In this document: piece by piece, positions 23,784-29,517 of the stretch
Layout of the letters: every line of letters begins with the position of its first letter
Position numbering within the stretch: position 1 is the stretch's first letter
NCBI GenBank assembly: GCA_963770895.1
Contig: CAVYRF010000002.1
Span: 2,368,001 to 2,432,000, forward strand
Direction of reading: 5' to 3'
Length of the DNA stretch: 64,000 nucleotides
Origin: an uncultured Acidobacteriota bacterium
GTDB lineage: Bacteria; Acidobacteriota; Thermoanaerobaculia; Multivoradales; UBA5704
The notes under the pieces: generated by a model
Database searches by the model: none
Seen by the model: the letters and a program-made list of their open reading frames with translations, nothing else
What the model was told of the DNA's origin: nothing
Program-made: the position numbers and the translations under genes

Positions 23784-25691
23784 CTAGTGCTTCGCGTTCG
23801 CGGCGCACATGCGCGACGTCCCGAACGTCCCGAACGTCGCGGCGCGCCGGCGGGTCGCGTCGATGCCGGCCGGTGGCTTGGGAGCGAAGAAGGCGATCCA
23901 CGTGCCGGTGGCCGGATAGCCGTCGACGCCGGGCCACGTCCAGGTCACGCTGCCGTTGACGATGCTGTAACCATCGGCGGACAGCTGGCCTGTATAGACC
24001 GCCGTCATGCCCGCCGAGGTGCTGTCGGAAGTGTCCGTGCGGTGCAGCACCACCGACTGTGGCGTAAACGTCTGCACCGTCAGCTCCGCGGCGGCGCCGT
24101 TGTCCCACTCGGCTTCGTACTGGCCTTCATTCAAGATCCAGGTGCCGGAAAAAGGGCCTTCTATTTCTTTGATCTCGAACGGCAAGCCAAGGCTGCACAA
24201 TCCCGTGGAGGAGTTGCAGGTGCTCCCGGACTCCAGCGCGCAGGGTGCGACCTGGCACTTGGGGGTCGAGGTCGGTAACGTGTTCAGAATCGAGGCGACG
24301 GAGCAGATGAAGCAGTCGCTAGTCGTTTCGCATTGATCTTCCAGGGCCTCTGGAAGAACCTGGGCACAGGTCGTGAACAGCGGCCCGTCGCAGGGCGTTG
24401 CCCGGGAGCTCGGATCGAAGTAGCAACCATTTGGCACGCAGTTGGTCAGGTAGCAGCTGTCGTGCGCTGCGCAGGCCGCGTTGAGCTCGGCGCTTGGAAT
24501 GAGTAAGGACAGGTATCCATGCTGGCCGTCGCAGCTATTGCCCGGGCCGCAGTACTGGCAGCCCGGTCCCGCCGACCGCGGCGCAGACTGCGGCGCCGAA
24601 GAGCCGGCAAGGCTGCAGCCTTCCAGGGCCATGAAACGATTCATCAGCAGGTTGAAGTCCGCGCCGAAAGGATCGGTCAGTCCCTGGGCGCTGGTCTGGG
24701 TCGCCTGCTTCACCTGTTGCACCGTGAGACTCTTGGAATCACAGGAGGGCAGGCAGGCGGCCAGGGCGGAGGTATCCTGCAGCGGCGCAAAGGCCGTGTT
24801 CTGGGGATTCCTGTAGGTGCGGGTGAGCCCGGTGATCGCGTCCGTGACCTCCAGGCTCACCGCGACGTTGGTCAACCCCGCGGCAAAGACCCAGAATTGC
24901 TGGTTGACGCCGCAGCCGTCCAGCACCTTTACCACCACCTCGACGCTGCTGGCGTCGAAGAACCAGAAATAGCCGGTGTCGGACGTGATCGACACCGCCT
25001 GGCCCGCGCCGCTGCTGCCGGTCGGCGTTTCCCACAGCGCCCGCACGCTGAAGCGGTCGGCGTTCAGGCACAGCGTCGTGCCATCGCTGGGATCGCAGGC
25101 GGAAGGAGCGCCGGCGGCCCTGGCCGCGGCTCGCTCATGTTTCCATTCCCGCGGGGCGCCGGCGCCGGCGGCAGGCGCCGCGCCTGCCGGCGTCGCATCT
25201 GCTGCCGTCCGATGCGGGGCCGCGCCGCATGCAAAGGCGGTGGTGTCCTGGACGGGAGCAAAGGGGTTTCCCTGGCGATTCCTGTAGCTGACCAGCGCCC
25301 CAGTCGCCGTATCCGTCACCGTGAGCACGACTTGCACGTTGGTAAGGCCGGCGGCAAAAACCCAATAGTGTCCATTGACGCTGCATCCATCGACGACCTT
25401 GGCGACGGCTTCGACGTTGGTCGAATCGAAAAACCAGAAATACCCCGTATCGTCGGTCAGCCCGACCGCCTGGCCGCCGCCGCTGCTCGGCGCCGTGGTC
25501 GTCCAAACCGCGCTCACCCGAAACCGCGATCCGTCCAGGCACAGGTGGGTTTCATCCGCGACGCAAGGAGCCGTGGCTTGGGCACCGCCCAGGCTGGTCG
25601 CGGGGCCGGCCACACCTGCCGGTCCGAGCTCCGCGGCCACGGCACCGGACGACATCAGCACCACGCAGGCAAGAATCGACGCAATCCTCAT
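23784..25691 (-). CDS. Secreted protein: two ~110-aa repeat modules, a Cys-rich phospholipase-A2-like domain and a C-terminal beta domain
   Basis: GGAGG RBS before ATG 25691 (MRIASILACVVL, signal peptide); duplicated CL..RF.V...W...DTGYFWFFD...VE...KV.DGC.VN..WVFAAGLTNV module; YCGPG and ACAAHDSCY motifs. Confidence 0.75.
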   Translation of the reverse strand: MRIASILACVVLMSSGAVAAELGPAGVAGPATSLGGAQATAPCVADETHLCLDGSRFRVSAVWTTTAPSSGGGQAVGLTDDTGYFWFFDSTNVEAVAKVVDGCSVNGHYWVFAAGLTNVQVVLTVTDTATGALVSYRNRQGNPFAPVQDTTAFACGAAPHRTAADATPAGAAPAAGAGAPREWKHERAAARAAGAPSACDPSDGTTLCLNADRFSVRALWETPTGSSGAGQAVSITSDTGYFWFFDASSVEVVVKVLDGCGVNQQFWVFAAGLTNVAVSLEVTDAITGLTRTYRNPQNTAFAPLQDTSALAACLPSCDSKSLTVQQVKQATQTSAQGLTDPFGADFNLLMNRFMALEGCSLAGSSAPQSAPRSAGPGCQYCGPGNSCDGQHGYLSLLIPSAELNAACAAHDSCYLTNCVPNGCYFDPSSRATPCDGPLFTTCAQVLPEALEDQCETTSDCFICSVASILNTLPTSTPKCQVAPCALESGSTCNSSTGLCSLGLPFEIKEIEGPFSGTWILNEGQYEAEWDNGAAAELTVQTFTPQSVVLHRTDTSDSTSAGMTAVYTGQLSADGYSIVNGSVTWTWPGVDGYPATGTWIAFFAPKPPAGIDATRRRAATFGTFGTSRMCAANAKH

Positions 25692-25860
25692 CAAGATCCC
25701 CTCCACTCCACAGAAAGCTTCCAGCCCCAGCCAAACTGGCGCTGCGCTGCCCAGGCCAGGCTGAGAAAGTTCGGGTTGCAGCCAAATCAGCGCCGCCCAG
25801 GCAAGACTGAGCCGGAGCCTCGCCAGGGATAGACCCGCCGCCTCAGAAACAAGGTGAGTC

Positions 25861-26155
25861 GCCCGCCCGCGCCCTTTGCCGCCCCTCCCGCCCACCCCTC
25901 TCATCCCTTCATCCCTCCGCCTCTCCTTTCGCCTCGACTCCTCCGCCCCCTCGACCCTTCCACCCTTTGCCCTCCTGCGCCTCGCACCTCGCACCTCGCC
26001 GACTCCGCCCCCCTGACCCTGCCCCCCTCCCGGCCCCTCGCCTTTCGCCCATCCGCCCCTCTTACCCTTCCCGCCCCCGCTTTCCGCTCCTCCCGCTGCC
26101 GCCCTCCCTGCCCCCCGGCCCCTCCCGCCTCCTCGCACCCCACTTGTCCCGCCAC
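25861..26155. other. ~300-bp intergenic pyrimidine (C)-rich low-complexity tract
   Basis: The + strand is almost all C/T runs, with few G or A, between two divergent genes. Confidence 0.8.
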
Positions 26156-26169
26156 GGTAGACTGTGGGT

Positions 26170-27375
26170 ATGGACGGATCGACGAGCAGCAAGGTGATAG
26201 CGGCGGAGGTGCGGGGGCTCAGGGAGGGGTGCGGGCTGGTGGAGCGGAGCTGGGTCGAGTGCCTGGAGCTTCGCGGCGCCGACCGCCAGCGGTTTCTGAA
26301 TGCGTACGTGACCTGCGACGTCAAGGGGCTGAAGGCGGGGGAGGGGGTGTATGGGTTCCTGACCAATCCGCAGGGTCGGGTGCTCGCGGACCTGGAGGTG
26401 CTGGCTGCCGCGGATTGGCTTTGGGCCGTCCTGCCGGCAGGGCAGGTGCAGGCGGTGAACGAGCACCTGCGGCGGTACGTGATCGCGGATCGCGTCGAGT
26501 TTGTCCGCCGCGACCCCGCCGCAGCGGCGGCCGATGCGGCGGCGCCTTTGGTGGCGCTGACGCTGGCCGGACCGCGGGCGGACGCGGCGATGGCGGAGCT
26601 GGCGCCGGGAGTGGCGCTGCCGGTGGCGGTGTGGCATCACGTAGGTGCCACGGTGGCGGACGTCCAGGTGGTGGTGGAGCGGACCGGGCGGCTGGGGGTG
26701 CCGGCGGTGACGCTGTGGACGCCTGGCCCGGAGGCGGCGCGGCTGCGGGATGCCCTGCTGGCGTGCCAGGGCGTCTCGCCGGTGAGCCGCGAAGCGTGCG
26801 AGGTGGTCAGGGTCGAAGCGGGGATCGCCCGGTTCGGTCAGGACTTTGGGCCGCAGAACTTCCCGCAGGAGACCGGTGCCGCAGACGCGGTGAGCTACAC
26901 CAAGGGGTGCTACCTGGGGCAGGAGGTGGTGGCCCGCATCCACTACCGGGGCGGCGTGCAAAAGATGCTATGCGGCCTGCTCTTCGACGAGACCCCGCGG
27001 GGTGGGGACGCCAGTGGCGCGCCGGCCAGCCCATCGGCCAACCTGGAAGGCGGGACACCGGAACATGGCACTCCGCTGCTGTACGAGGGGCGGGAGGCGG
27101 GGCGGGTTGGCACCGCGGTGCGCTCGCCGGCTTCGGGCAGGTCGATCGGCCTTGCCATCCTGCACCGCCGCGCGGCCGAGCCGGGGACTCGCCTGGACGT
27201 GGCTGTGGCGGTCCCCGCCGGTGGCGGTGAGGTGGCAGCCGCGGCGGCCGTGACGGGCGAAGGAGCTGCGCCCGCCGCCGCTGGCGGCCAGACTGCACCC
27301 GGCGGCGAGCCACCTGCCGGCCACGGTTGGCGCGGCAGCGCCCAGGTGTGTGCGCTGCCGTTTGGCCCTGCCTGA
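26170..27375 (+). CDS. YgfZ/GcvT-family folate-binding protein
   Basis: GADRQRFLN..TCDV, LTNPQGRV, RVEAGIARFG, FPQE, VSYTKGCYLGQEVVAR. Confidence 0.9.
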   Translation: MDGSTSSKVIAAEVRGLREGCGLVERSWVECLELRGADRQRFLNAYVTCDVKGLKAGEGVYGFLTNPQGRVLADLEVLAAADWLWAVLPAGQVQAVNEHLRRYVIADRVEFVRRDPAAAAADAAAPLVALTLAGPRADAAMAELAPGVALPVAVWHHVGATVADVQVVVERTGRLGVPAVTLWTPGPEAARLRDALLACQGVSPVSREACEVVRVEAGIARFGQDFGPQNFPQETGAADAVSYTKGCYLGQEVVARIHYRGGVQKMLCGLLFDETPRGGDASGAPASPSANLEGGTPEHGTPLLYEGREAGRVGTAVRSPASGRSIGLAILHRRAAEPGTRLDVAVAVPAGGGEVAAAAAVTGEGAAPAAAGGQTAPGGEPPAGHGWRGSAQVCALPFGPA

Positions 27376-27507: not shown

Positions 27508-27900
27508 TCAGACCGCGAACGAAGAGCCGCAGCCGCAGGTGCCGGTGGCGCGCGGATTGTTGAACTTGAAGCCCGCGCCGCTCATGCCGAGCACGTAGTC
27601 GACGGTGGTGCCTTCGAGGTACCGGGCGCTCACCGGGTCCACGAAGAGCGTGAGCCCGTGCTGCTGGTAGACGTAGTCGTTTTCCCGCGGCTCGCTCTCG
27701 AAGTCGAGCGCGTATTCAAAGCCGCTACAGCCACCGCCGCGCACCGCCACGCGCAGACCGTGGCTGGGATCGATACTCTCTTGATCGCGGGTGATCTTCA
27801 CCATATCGACCGCCTTGGCGGTCATGAGCACCGGCGTGTCCTCAAGCTCCGAGGACGGCCCAGGCGCTTCCGGCGCCGGCTGATTCTGTAGGGATTCCAT
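27508..27900 (-). CDS. iscA: HesB/IscA/ErpA A-type Fe-S carrier
   Basis: LRVAVRGGGCSGFEY, GFKFNNP, TCGCGSSF; AAGGAG RBS before ATG 27900. Confidence 0.93.
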   Translation of the reverse strand: MESLQNQPAPEAPGPSSELEDTPVLMTAKAVDMVKITRDQESIDPSHGLRVAVRGGGCSGFEYALDFESEPRENDYVYQQHGLTLFVDPVSARYLEGTTVDYVLGMSGAGFKFNNPRATGTCGCGSSFAV

Positions 27901-27927
27901 GCGGTTCTCCTTCCCTTCGCGGTTTCC

Positions 27928-27956
27928 AAGATAGCCCTCCACCCCTCCAATGTCAA
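27928..27956 (-). promoter_or_regulatory. Sigma70 promoter of the iscA-like gene
   Basis: Minus strand: TTGACA, 17 bp, TATCTT. Confidence 0.75.
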
Positions 27957-27975
27957 ACAGCTGCCGGCCTGCGAT

Positions 27976-28458
27976 TTATGCCTGCGGCGGCGGGATTGGG
28001 GTGGTGGTGACCTTTTCGCTGTTGATTCCAACCTTGACGAACTTGCCGATCGACGGCACCCGGAAGATGTACTGCGGCTCCTCGGTGGCAGGGTGCGTGA
28101 CCTGCCAGCGCACGGTCGTCGCGGTGATGTCGCCGATGTAGCCGGCCTGGTTCTTGATCGCTGCCGCACGGATGATGCCGAAACGCAGCGGCAGCGGGAT
28201 CGGATCTGACTCCAGGAAGATGTCGTGCACCAGCTGCGGAGCGGTGAATTGAAAGTTCTTGCTGTACAGGAACACGGTTTCGGCCCGCCGCGGCGGGTCC
28301 GCCGGGATGCCGTACACCAGCCGCCAGTCGTAGGTGTCCGCGCCCTGCACCCAGGGCGAGTCGGCCTCCAGAAACACCGCGCTGGGATAGGCACCTTGGA
28401 CGATGCGGGTGCCGTTGTTGAGCACCACGAAAAACGGATCGACGATCTGCTCGCTCAT
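27976..28458 (-). CDS. Hypothetical protein (160 aa, probably beta-rich, no recognised family)
   Basis: Protein-like composition, GC-ending codons and an AGGA RBS; lies directly downstream of the small peptide gene. Confidence 0.75.
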   Translation of the reverse strand: MSEQIVDPFFVVLNNGTRIVQGAYPSAVFLEADSPWVQGADTYDWRLVYGIPADPPRRAETVFLYSKNFQFTAPQLVHDIFLESDPIPLPLRFGIIRAAAIKNQAGYIGDITATTVRWQVTHPATEEPQYIFRVPSIGKFVKVGINSEKVTTTPIPPPQA

Positions 28459-28512
28459 CCTTGCCAGTTCCTTCTGCCGGCAGGGCGCCCCTCCGTGGGG
28501 ACGCCTCGCTTG

Positions 28513-28671
28513 CTAGCGTTTGGGTGCAACCGGCGGCGCGCACTCGGGGCAGGTGTAAAACGCCGGCACCGAGAAATGGCCTCCCAGGACGTTGCCCAGG
28601 CTGCCATCCTGGAGCGCGGCGATCGTTTCAGCGTGCAGCGAAAGCTTCAGGTACGAGGCGTTCTTTTTCAT
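28513..28671 (-). CDS. 52-aa RiPP-precursor-like peptide with a double-glycine leader (below the ORF-track cutoff)
   Basis: Hand translation: MKKNASYLKLSLHAETIAALQDGSLGNVLGG|HFSVPAFYTCPECAPPVAPKR*. GGGAG RBS upstream, hairpin downstream. Confidence 0.75.
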   Translation of the reverse strand: MKKNASYLKLSLHAETIAALQDGSLGNVLGGHFSVPAFYTCPECAPPVAPKR

Positions 28672-28824
28672 GAGTTGTTCTCCCTTTCAGGCTTGTCCTA
28701 CAAGAGAAGGTGTGGGCCGAACCCGAAGGCGGGACCCCGCCAAGCCGAGACCGGACCTTGCGGATGAGACGCTGGCGGGGCTGGGGGCGGCCAGGGGGCT
28801 TGGGGTTGGCGGTATGATGCGCCG

Positions 28825-29517
28825 GTGATCCGGGCGATCCTGTTTGACTTCAACGGCATCCTGGTCGACGACGAGCCCATCCATCTGGAGATGTTTCAGC
28901 GAGTGCTGGCGGAGGAGGGGATCGAGCTGACGGCCGCGGCATATTACGAGCGGTACCTGGGATTCGACGACCGGGGCTGTTTTGCGGCGGTGCTGGAAGG
29001 TGCTGGCGAGGTGCCTTCGGTGCCGCGGTTGATGCGGCTGAGCGCGCGCAAGGCGGCTTACTACCAGGAGCGCATTCGCGGCGGCGGATACCCGCTGTTT
29101 CCCGGCGCTTTCGAGCTGGTGCGGGCGGCGGCCGGCGCCGGGCTGATGCTGGGGGTGGTGAGCGGCGCGCTGCGTGAAGAGGTGGAGGGGGCCCTGCGCC
29201 AGGCGGGGGTGGCGGACTTCTTCAAGGCGCTGGTCACGGCGGACGACGTGGAGCGGGGCAAGCCCGACCCCGAAGGGTACCGGCGGGCTCTCGAAGCGCT
29301 CAACGGACTGCCGCCGCTGCCGGAACGGCTGCTGCATCCGCACGAAGTGGTGGCGATCGAGGACAGCCCCGCCGGGCTGGCGGCGGCGGCGGAGGTCGGC
29401 CTGACAACGCTGGGCATCGCCCATACCTACCCGGTGGCCACGCTCAGCAGCGCCGATGCCGTGGTCGAGAGCCTGCAGGGGCTCGATCTGGCGGGGCTTG
29501 CGGCGCTGTTCGGCTGA
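28825..29517 (+). CDS. HAD family phosphatase (beta-PGM/CbbY-like)
   Basis: LFDFNGILVDDE, VVSGA, GKPDPEGY, AIEDSPAG. Confidence 0.9.
   Translation: MIRAILFDFNGILVDDEPIHLEMFQRVLAEEGIELTAAAYYERYLGFDDRGCFAAVLEGAGEVPSVPRLMRLSARKAAYYQERIRGGGYPLFPGAFELVRAAAGAGLMLGVVSGALREEVEGALRQAGVADFFKALVTADDVERGKPDPEGYRRALEALNGLPPLPERLLHPHEVVAIEDSPAGLAAAAEVGLTTLGIAHTYPVATLSSADAVVESLQGLDLAGLAALFG

Follow-up and report, generated by a model that had tools for sequence, protein, structure and literature searches.

A small orphan gene of an uncultured Thermoanaerobaculia bacterium encodes a predicted lanthipeptide-type precursor of a large, dispersed leader family

Introduction

Class I lanthipeptide precursors (LanAs) of Bacteroidetes carry, as described in the passages of Walker et al. 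2020 (PMC7268733) that treat them, an LxLxKx5L leader ending in Gly-Gly, and their clusters encode C39 proteases; pinensin is included there in the same LanA family. A different arrangement is found in marine cyanobacteria, where, according to PMC7268733 and PMC9872173 on prochlorosins/ProcM and SyncA/SyncM, one promiscuous synthetase acts on tens of dispersed precursors. Within the class Thermoanaerobaculia, the portions of PMC13083261 dealing with ThaA and TheA describe precursors that are clustered with a LanM and a thiazole-forming GMC oxidoreductase and that need a Gly-Cys motif. No orphan-precursor expansion in Acidobacteria was found described in the literature searched, which left subscription journals and supplements outside its scope.

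We analyzed a 64-kb stretch of DNA (the window; C2:2368001-2432000) of the 8.16-Mb, three-contig genome of an uncultured bacterium of this class, and report on a 52-residue peptide encoded in it that shares some traits with each of these systems and differs from each in others.

Results

A 52-codon gene with a class I lanthipeptide-type leader

The peptide gene is a minus-strand ORF of 52 codons followed by a TAG stop codon, located in DNA of approximately 70% G+C, and encodes MKKNASYLKLSLHAETIAALQDGSLGNVLGGHFSVPAFYTCPECAPPVAPKR. Its coordinates and those of the surrounding features are given in Table 1. The preliminary description of this DNA, which was made from the letters alone, was exact as to the position and sequence of this ORF; the GGGAG ribosome binding site that it reported corresponds to the Shine-Dalgarno sequence of Table 1, and the GC stem-loop that it placed after the stop codon is present at that place. 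It also called the gene hidden, which it is not: NCBI/ENA contains an identical 52-aa protein, JGI/IMG lists it as 'hypothetical protein', and a 53-aa ortholog from a congener, HLX06237.1, is named 'class I lanthipeptide [Thermoanaerobaculia bacterium]' in NCBI.

Table 1. Coordinates of the peptide gene and of neighboring features in the window.
Feature	Position	Strand	Evidence or remark
Precursor peptide gene	28513..28671	-	NF038153 match; orthologs in 4/9 congeners; core pN 0.00-0.10 vs pS 0.30-0.70
Leader, residues 1-31, Gly-Gly at end	28579-28671	-	
Predicted core, residues 32-52 (21 residues)	28516-28578	-	
Shine-Dalgarno GGGAGA, 7 nt 5' of ATG	28679..28684	-	GGAGA invariant in 5/5 orthologous genes aligned
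Conserved 5' region, ~60 bp	28672..28730	-	Block upstream of ATG, kept across 5 orthologs
G+C hairpin, 8-bp stem, 6-nt loop	28484..28505	-	Between peptide stop codon and ATG of 160-aa gene
160-aa gene, 54 nt downstream of peptide gene	27976..28458	-	No Pfam/NCBIfam family
Promoter-like TTGACA-17-TATCTT before ErpA-type gene	27956-27928	-	-35 box conserved in four congeners aligned
IscA/ErpA-type Fe-S insertion protein gene	27508..27942	-	Family searches; start uncertain
HAD-IA hydrolase gene, divergent from peptide gene	28825..29517	+	Family searches
ErpA-HAD spacer	27843..28808	.	965 bp; edges are the ends of blocks alignable with congeners, so that it reaches slightly into both flanking genes

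The 52-aa peptide had no Pfam match, and no match to the Nif11/NHLP leader models at E ≤ 10. The sole model returned was NF038153 (lant_leader_L1a, class I lanthipeptide, NCBIfam), with 28.6 bits against a cut-off of 22 (E = 1.2e-6; 28.5 bits when the whole genome was searched), peptide residues 1-31 aligning with model positions 1-32. No match above the cut-off was obtained in any of 14 control genomes, and the leader match therefore exceeds chance. Since the leader falls in a curated class I lanthipeptide family, its earlier reading as RiPP-precursor-like with a double-Gly leader holds, the leader being of the type described in the pertinent passages of Walker et al. 2020. That the peptide belongs to the NF038153-type leader family we regard as very probable. 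To a family that annotation pipelines already recognise, the gene contributes one more predicted precursor of lanthipeptide type, still uncharacterised.

The leader motif reads Leu11-x-Leu13-x-Ala15-x5-Leu21, with the three Leu in register and Ala at the Lys position. That position is occupied by Ala, Arg, Val and Thr in four orthologs (see below) and by Arg in most paralogs. Gly30-Gly31 closes the leader and is kept in all five orthologs. The core contains only two Cys, one Ser and one Thr, and these residues (Ser3, Thr9, Cys10 and Cys13 of the core) are likewise invariant in the five. The conserved block upstream of the ATG is probably a 5' UTR or promoter, judging from the alignment; it stays with the peptide gene despite the changed genomic context described in the next section.

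The core is conserved among congeners while the gene changes its address

Orthologs with the core H-[FY]-S-[VI]-P-A-F-[YF]-T-C-P-E-C-A-P were found in four of nine congeners (G001, G003, G006 and G009). When 92 genomes of the family were searched at the protein level, only three further matches came up, all weak, from two genomes (G082 and G089) of another genus. Two of these three were inspected and rejected as core orthologs outside the genus: they are paralog-type genes with other cores. On these searches the CPEC-core ortholog group is genus-restricted.

Among the five orthologs (10 pairs), the first 15 core codons showed a pS of 0.30-0.70 and a pN of 0.00-0.10, and the last 24 leader codons a pS of 0.10-0.60 and a pN of 0.06-0.33, corresponding to pN/pS ratios of approximately 0-0.2 for the core and 0.35-0.85 for the leader. 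The low pN of the core relative to its pS indicates that the frame is translated and that the core is its constrained part. By this measure the core is under strong purifying selection, and the ORF is almost certainly a real translated gene.

The five loci are homologous only across 190-239 bp, which comprise the ORF and short flanking stretches, and the context of the gene differs in each of the five genomes: it lies by a methyltransferase beside an NRPS in G003, at the 3' end of an orthologous NRPS in G001, between an S1-like protein and an M28-type peptidase (both read by eye) in G009, and in yet another context in G006.

The position directly 3' of the orthologous giant NRPS is occupied by the CPEC-core gene in G001 (L056:542-703). 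In the genome under study the counterpart slot (C1:1830288-1830614) holds a different family member with another core, as if these small genes were exchangeable cassettes.

The genome encodes about a hundred paralogs with similar leaders

A search of the whole genome with NF038153 gave 43 matches at E ≤ 10, three of them above the cut-off. A leader HMM built from 83 ORFs of the same genome, which were picked by regular expression and match by construction, identified 99 ORFs at a score of at least 17.5 bits. The preliminary description had proposed a search for small ORFs with such a leader and Gly-Gly; homologs thus exist, both as these approximately 99 paralogs and as the orthologs in four of the nine congeners. 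All 99 leaders follow the pattern MKK..KLxLxRETLxxL...(A/G)G, and the cores that follow them are 12-49 residues long. A four-nucleotide Shine-Dalgarno core was present at -18 to -4 in 88/99 paralogs, against 11% of 20,000 random ATGs.

The CPEC peptide scored 29.6 bits with this HMM, approximately rank 82 of 99, and is hence a divergent member of the family. In sequence it is atypical on three counts: few Cys, Ser and Thr, Ala at the K/R position of the motif, and the low leader score. Cys, Thr and Ser make up 15.8%, 14.6% and 8.0% of the residues of the family cores, and the median number of Cys per core is four; only 13 of 98 cores, including that of the peptide, have two or fewer. Every Cys could be assigned its own upstream Ser or Thr in 91/98 cores, against a mean of 38.6 for shuffled cores (sd 4.4; maximum of 54 in 1000 shuffles), and the peptide core passes this test. 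Such an order across the family is, as read from the predicted cores, the polarity of lanthionine rings.

Most copies are located far from candidate enzymes: for 85/99 no LanB, LanC-like or C39 match was found within 15 kb. A LanC-like match occurs within 4 kb of 7/99 copies; none of the 99 has a LanB match within 15 kb, the nearest copy lying approximately 17 kb from one. When the ORFs up to 4 kb away from each of the 99 copies were compared by all-against-all BLAST, no dominant family of shared neighbors emerged, the largest clusters (NRPS modules, permease-like and LanC-like proteins) touching 10-13 loci.

Three copies (C2:2707932-2709298, C1:1579909-1581279 and C2:5020190-5020498) form a leader sub-type, ..K(K/R)(L/M)RI(N/A)(K/S)ETLLPL(A/G)SR... 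Two of the three are located 93-97 bp from a stand-alone LanC-like gene; their cores have at most one Cys, an odd trait in the partner of a cyclase.

Candidate maturation and export enzymes are encoded elsewhere in the genome

As had been stated in the preliminary description, the window itself contains no gene for a LanB, LanC-like, C39, LanM (DUF4135) or YcaO protein; searches of the whole genome placed none there. One full-length LanB of 1177 aa is encoded at C2:5180050-5183583 (Lant_dehydr_N, 550 bits; Lant_dehydr_C, 236 bits), convergent with a LanC of 536 aa (112 bits; C2:5178405-5180015). The pair lies on the same contig as the peptide gene, 2.8 Mb away, and no precursor gene adjoins it. 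The second LanB-like match in the genome was weak. The genome further contains two LanM (DUF4135 + LanC), approximately 14 LanC-like matches, one YcaO and nine C39 matches, none of the latter within 15 kb of the peptide gene. An NHLP-type peptidase-ABC exporter pair is encoded at C1:1782768-1787967, both members scoring above their curated cut-offs (TIGR03796, 1073 bits vs 853; TIGR03797, 919 vs 709).

Several features of these loci were observed in addition. Upstream of the LanB gene lies one for a secreted Gly/Asn-rich protein, and the DNA near the LanB at C2:5184600-5184900 is A+T-rich (45-49% G+C). No NHLP/Nif11-type precursor was seen near the exporter pair, which is a candidate general exporter for orphan peptides. 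At C2:4303987-4310992 a class II LanM is followed by an ABC transporter, and an L1a-leader gene with a core of approximately 41 residues, 10 of them Cys, is found 3.5 kb away on the opposite strand; this leader type may thus also serve class II enzymes.

Since LanB and LanC are encoded elsewhere in the genome, maturation in trans is possible. An orphan matured in trans was one of the two alternatives offered in the preliminary description, which proposed to look for trans-encoded LanBC, LanM or PCAT genes, and it is the one favored here. The LanB/LanC pair, the two LanM and the exporter pair fit that expectation, as does the co-occurrence of the leader family with LanB described below.

The leader family co-occurs with LanB in related genomes

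The presence of leader matches (E ≤ 0.1) and of LanB (E ≤ 1e-100) was compared in 61 genomes, namely the genome under study and 60 relatives. LanB was found in 30/33 genomes with leader matches and in 2/28 without (G017 and G041), counts that overstate the case since the relatives are not independent of each other. Genomes with both the leader family and LanB and genomes with neither occur within each of four genera (g5, g6, g7 and g8), and these contrasts soften the problem of kinship but do not remove it.

The three genomes with leader matches that fell outside the rule were G005 (1.9e-67, 84% complete), G020 (LanB in two adjacent pieces) and G024, in which 15 leader matches were accompanied by a weak LanB match only (5e-30). 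Among the genomes without leader matches, LanB reached 3.3e-95 in G056. The association with the leader family is looser for LanM than for LanB in these searches: LanM was found in 23/33 genomes with leader matches and in 5/28 without, and no LanM match was obtained in five genomes with 11-26 leader matches (G008, G018, G022, G027 and G034).

In relatives with few copies, leader genes were found clustered with LanB, at a distance of 1.2-5.6 kb: at two loci in G039 and in G026, G032, G002, G036 and G029.

Proposed maturation and alternative products

The reading towards which we lean is that the gene encodes a real NF038153-type precursor, one of approximately 99 dispersed paralogs, which is matured in trans by LanB and LanC and cut after Gly-Gly. 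The 31-residue leader would recruit enzymes encoded elsewhere, most likely the only full-length LanB and its neighboring LanC. LanB would dehydrate Ser3 and Thr9 of the core; addition of Cys10 and Cys13 to these residues by LanC would form up to two overlapping thioether rings (Ser3-Cys10 and Thr9-Cys13); and a C39 peptidase-ABC exporter, for which the TIGR03796/TIGR03797 pair on C1 is the clearest candidate, would cut after Gly31 and export the 21-residue peptide. We infer each chemical step, the acting enzyme, the export and the activity of the peptide from the genes, and whether this LanB and LanC make the peptide into a lanthipeptide we consider evenly balanced.

The product could instead be an unmodified or disulfide-bonded double-glycine-leader peptide, bacteriocin-like or signalling, that is cut and exported by a C39 enzyme and has no thioether rings. 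The Gly-Gly end of the leader, the NHLP-type exporter pair and the nine C39 matches of the genome would suit such a peptide, as would the absence of a maturase nearby and a core with one Ser and one Thr whose Cys-Pro-Glu-Cys could form a disulfide or bind metal. However, the leader family tracks LanB and is clustered with it at seven loci of relatives, the order of Ser/Thr and Cys in the family cores is far from that of the shuffled cores, and the core Ser and Thr are invariant in the five orthologs. We regard this alternative as unlikely.

Rather improbable, in our judgment, is a RiPP precursor matured by a different enzyme: a LanM, a stand-alone LanC-like protein with a partner, a radical SAM enzyme or a GMC-family oxidoreductase. 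The genome does encode two DUF4135 + LanC proteins, with an ABC transporter between one of them and a family member, as well as the LanC-like and YcaO proteins listed above; and in Thermoanaerobaculia, ThaM/ThaO and TheO act on Cys-rich cores, as reported in the relevant portions of PMC13083261. Against this, LanM follows the leader family less closely than LanB does and is missing from five leader-rich genomes, and the thiazole-forming enzyme, according to the same portions of that source, requires a Gly-Cys motif, which the peptide core lacks.

The peptide gene and the 160-aa gene lie in additional DNA between two conserved neighbors

The ErpA-type and HAD genes are direct neighbors in all nine congeners, with a spacer of 246-563 bp there vs 965 bp here, a length measured between the ends of congener-aligned blocks. 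The extra DNA of approximately 400-720 bp carries the peptide gene and the 160-aa gene. The conserved promoter-like box of the ErpA-type gene marks its left border, which falls immediately upstream of that box. No flanking repeats were seen around the extra spacer DNA, and on the right side the congeners differ too much from each other for a border to be placed; clean insertion borders were accordingly rejected.

The coverage of the region was drawn from Logan contigs, among which DNA contigs may stem from the source sample and are thus not independent support. The only RNA-library contig on the region (X8, from a soil metatranscriptome; 215 nt, 8 differences) covers positions 27838-28052; it runs from the 3' end of the 160-aa gene into the 5' region of the ErpA-type gene and does not reach the peptide gene. 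With its 8 differences it points to a relative with the same gene junction in the sample of another study.

The 66-nt stretch that includes the hairpin folds with -27.7 kcal/mol (z = -1.88), and nine of 200 shuffled sequences fold at least as well; its stability is moderately unusual only. The hairpin has no U tract, the terminator scan makes no call, and it is not conserved at the orthologous loci, where homology stops at the stop codon in the alignment of the five orthologous genes. On these three grounds an intrinsic terminator was rejected.

Elsewhere in the window, the translation of a long minus-strand ORF at 23784-26366 reads as a probable secreted protein whose C-terminal part is rich in Cys and in which a segment of some 100-150 residues, itself containing Cys, is internally duplicated in two similar copies.

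Searches with the 160-aa protein retrieved 55 representatives at E ≤ 1e-3 among 1.84 billion proteins. The protein models as a two-domain α/β fold (pLDDT 95.1, pTM 0.88). The solved structure that best matched the model was the putative lipoprotein 4exr (E 4.3e-4, TM 0.56-0.58), and the YpeB C-terminal domain 5boi ranked seventh among the structure matches. We take the two α/β domains to be PepSY-like.

The second possibility raised in the preliminary description was that the peptide is the substrate of this neighboring protein. More broadly, the peptide might be its substrate, cargo or partner: both genes are on the same strand with a gap of 54 nt, which contains the hairpin without a U tract, and both lie in the spacer DNA missing from congeners. 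But the protein was found in none of the nine congeners, four of which carry the peptide, in 1/60 relatives by sequence and in 4/400 other genomes of the class by profile. The proposed check of synteny between the two genes turned out negative as well: they do not co-occur in the congeners, and no leader-like ORF was found within approximately 1.5 kb of four other loci with a homolog of the 160-aa protein (best score, 6.4 bits). Furthermore, its small fold belongs to no recognisable catalytic family, and it has no paralog in the genome and thus none beside the other 98 peptides. Absent where such peptides occur elsewhere, the protein is unlikely to be a maturase or an obligate partner. The lack of co-occurrence largely refutes the pairing, which we hold to be very unlikely; judged from this distribution the protein is probably not the maturase of the peptide, and its gene is taken to be an unrelated passenger.

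Finally, a chance ORF or a decaying copy without function, for which one could invoke the many spurious ORFs of a 70% G+C genome and the low leader score within the family, is contradicted by the substitution pattern of the core, the four congener orthologs, the curated HMM cut-off passed and the conserved Shine-Dalgarno site and 5' region, and can be practically discounted.

Discussion

The peptide is an uncharacterised member of a known precursor type and not a new system. As in the LanAs described in those passages of Walker et al. 2020, its leader scores above the NF038153 cut-off, has three Leu in register and ends in Gly-Gly, its core contains Ser, Thr and Cys, and the genome encodes LanB, LanC and C39 exporters. 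It differs from those LanAs in its origin (Acidobacteriota, class Thermoanaerobaculia), in the Ala at the Lys position, in a core with only two Cys, and in a gene that is unclustered, with the enzymes megabases away.

The similarity to the prochlorosins is one of organization. Approximately 99 precursors share a leader and have hypervariable cores rich in Cys, Ser and Thr; most of them are encoded at a distance from every synthetase gene, and one LanB/LanC pair stands without an adjacent precursor. The prochlorosin system, however, uses a class II LanM and leaders of the Nif11/NHLP type, whereas the leader here is L1a and the candidate enzymes are a class I LanB and LanC. The family works alike on paper, but since the peptide has no match to the Nif11/NHLP leader models and the leader family co-occurs less well with LanM than with LanB, it is not a member of the prochlorosin type.

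With the substrates of C39 PCATs the peptide shares the Gly-Gly at the end of a leader of approximately 30 residues, and a complete exporter pair above the curated cut-offs is present in the genome; in contrast to NHLP-type PCAT substrates, the candidate exporter lies on another contig and the leader has no match to the NHLP/Nif11 models. ThaA and TheA, as presented in those portions of PMC13083261, come from the same bacterial class and likewise have a leader followed by a Cys-containing core, a likeness of layout; through them it has been proven by experiment that peptides of this kind are genuine RiPP substrates in the lineage. The peptide differs from them in being unclustered with enzymes and in having a core without Gly-Cys.

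We tentatively propose, as a conjecture that may well prove wrong, that the approximately 99 L1a-leader genes and the single precursor-less LanB/LanC constitute the class I counterpart, in Acidobacteria, of a prochlorosin library, that the genes move between unrelated loci as units of approximately 200-240 bp comprising the 5' region and the ORF, and that the CPEC peptide is a conserved product whose invariant N-terminal His and Cys-Pro-Glu-Cys would mark a specific target and not library noise.

The wider pattern is more useful than the single gene: genomes of soil Thermoanaerobaculia with about a hundred orphan precursors each, in tight co-occurrence with a single full-length LanB, and small precursor genes that change address between close relatives. 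The CPEC-core group is a convenient test case, being short, conserved and limited to at most two rings. If one LanB/LanC pair serves all of these precursors, this would amount to a class I system that is promiscuous by nature, of interest for peptide engineers, and the family would represent a large untapped set of soil peptides.
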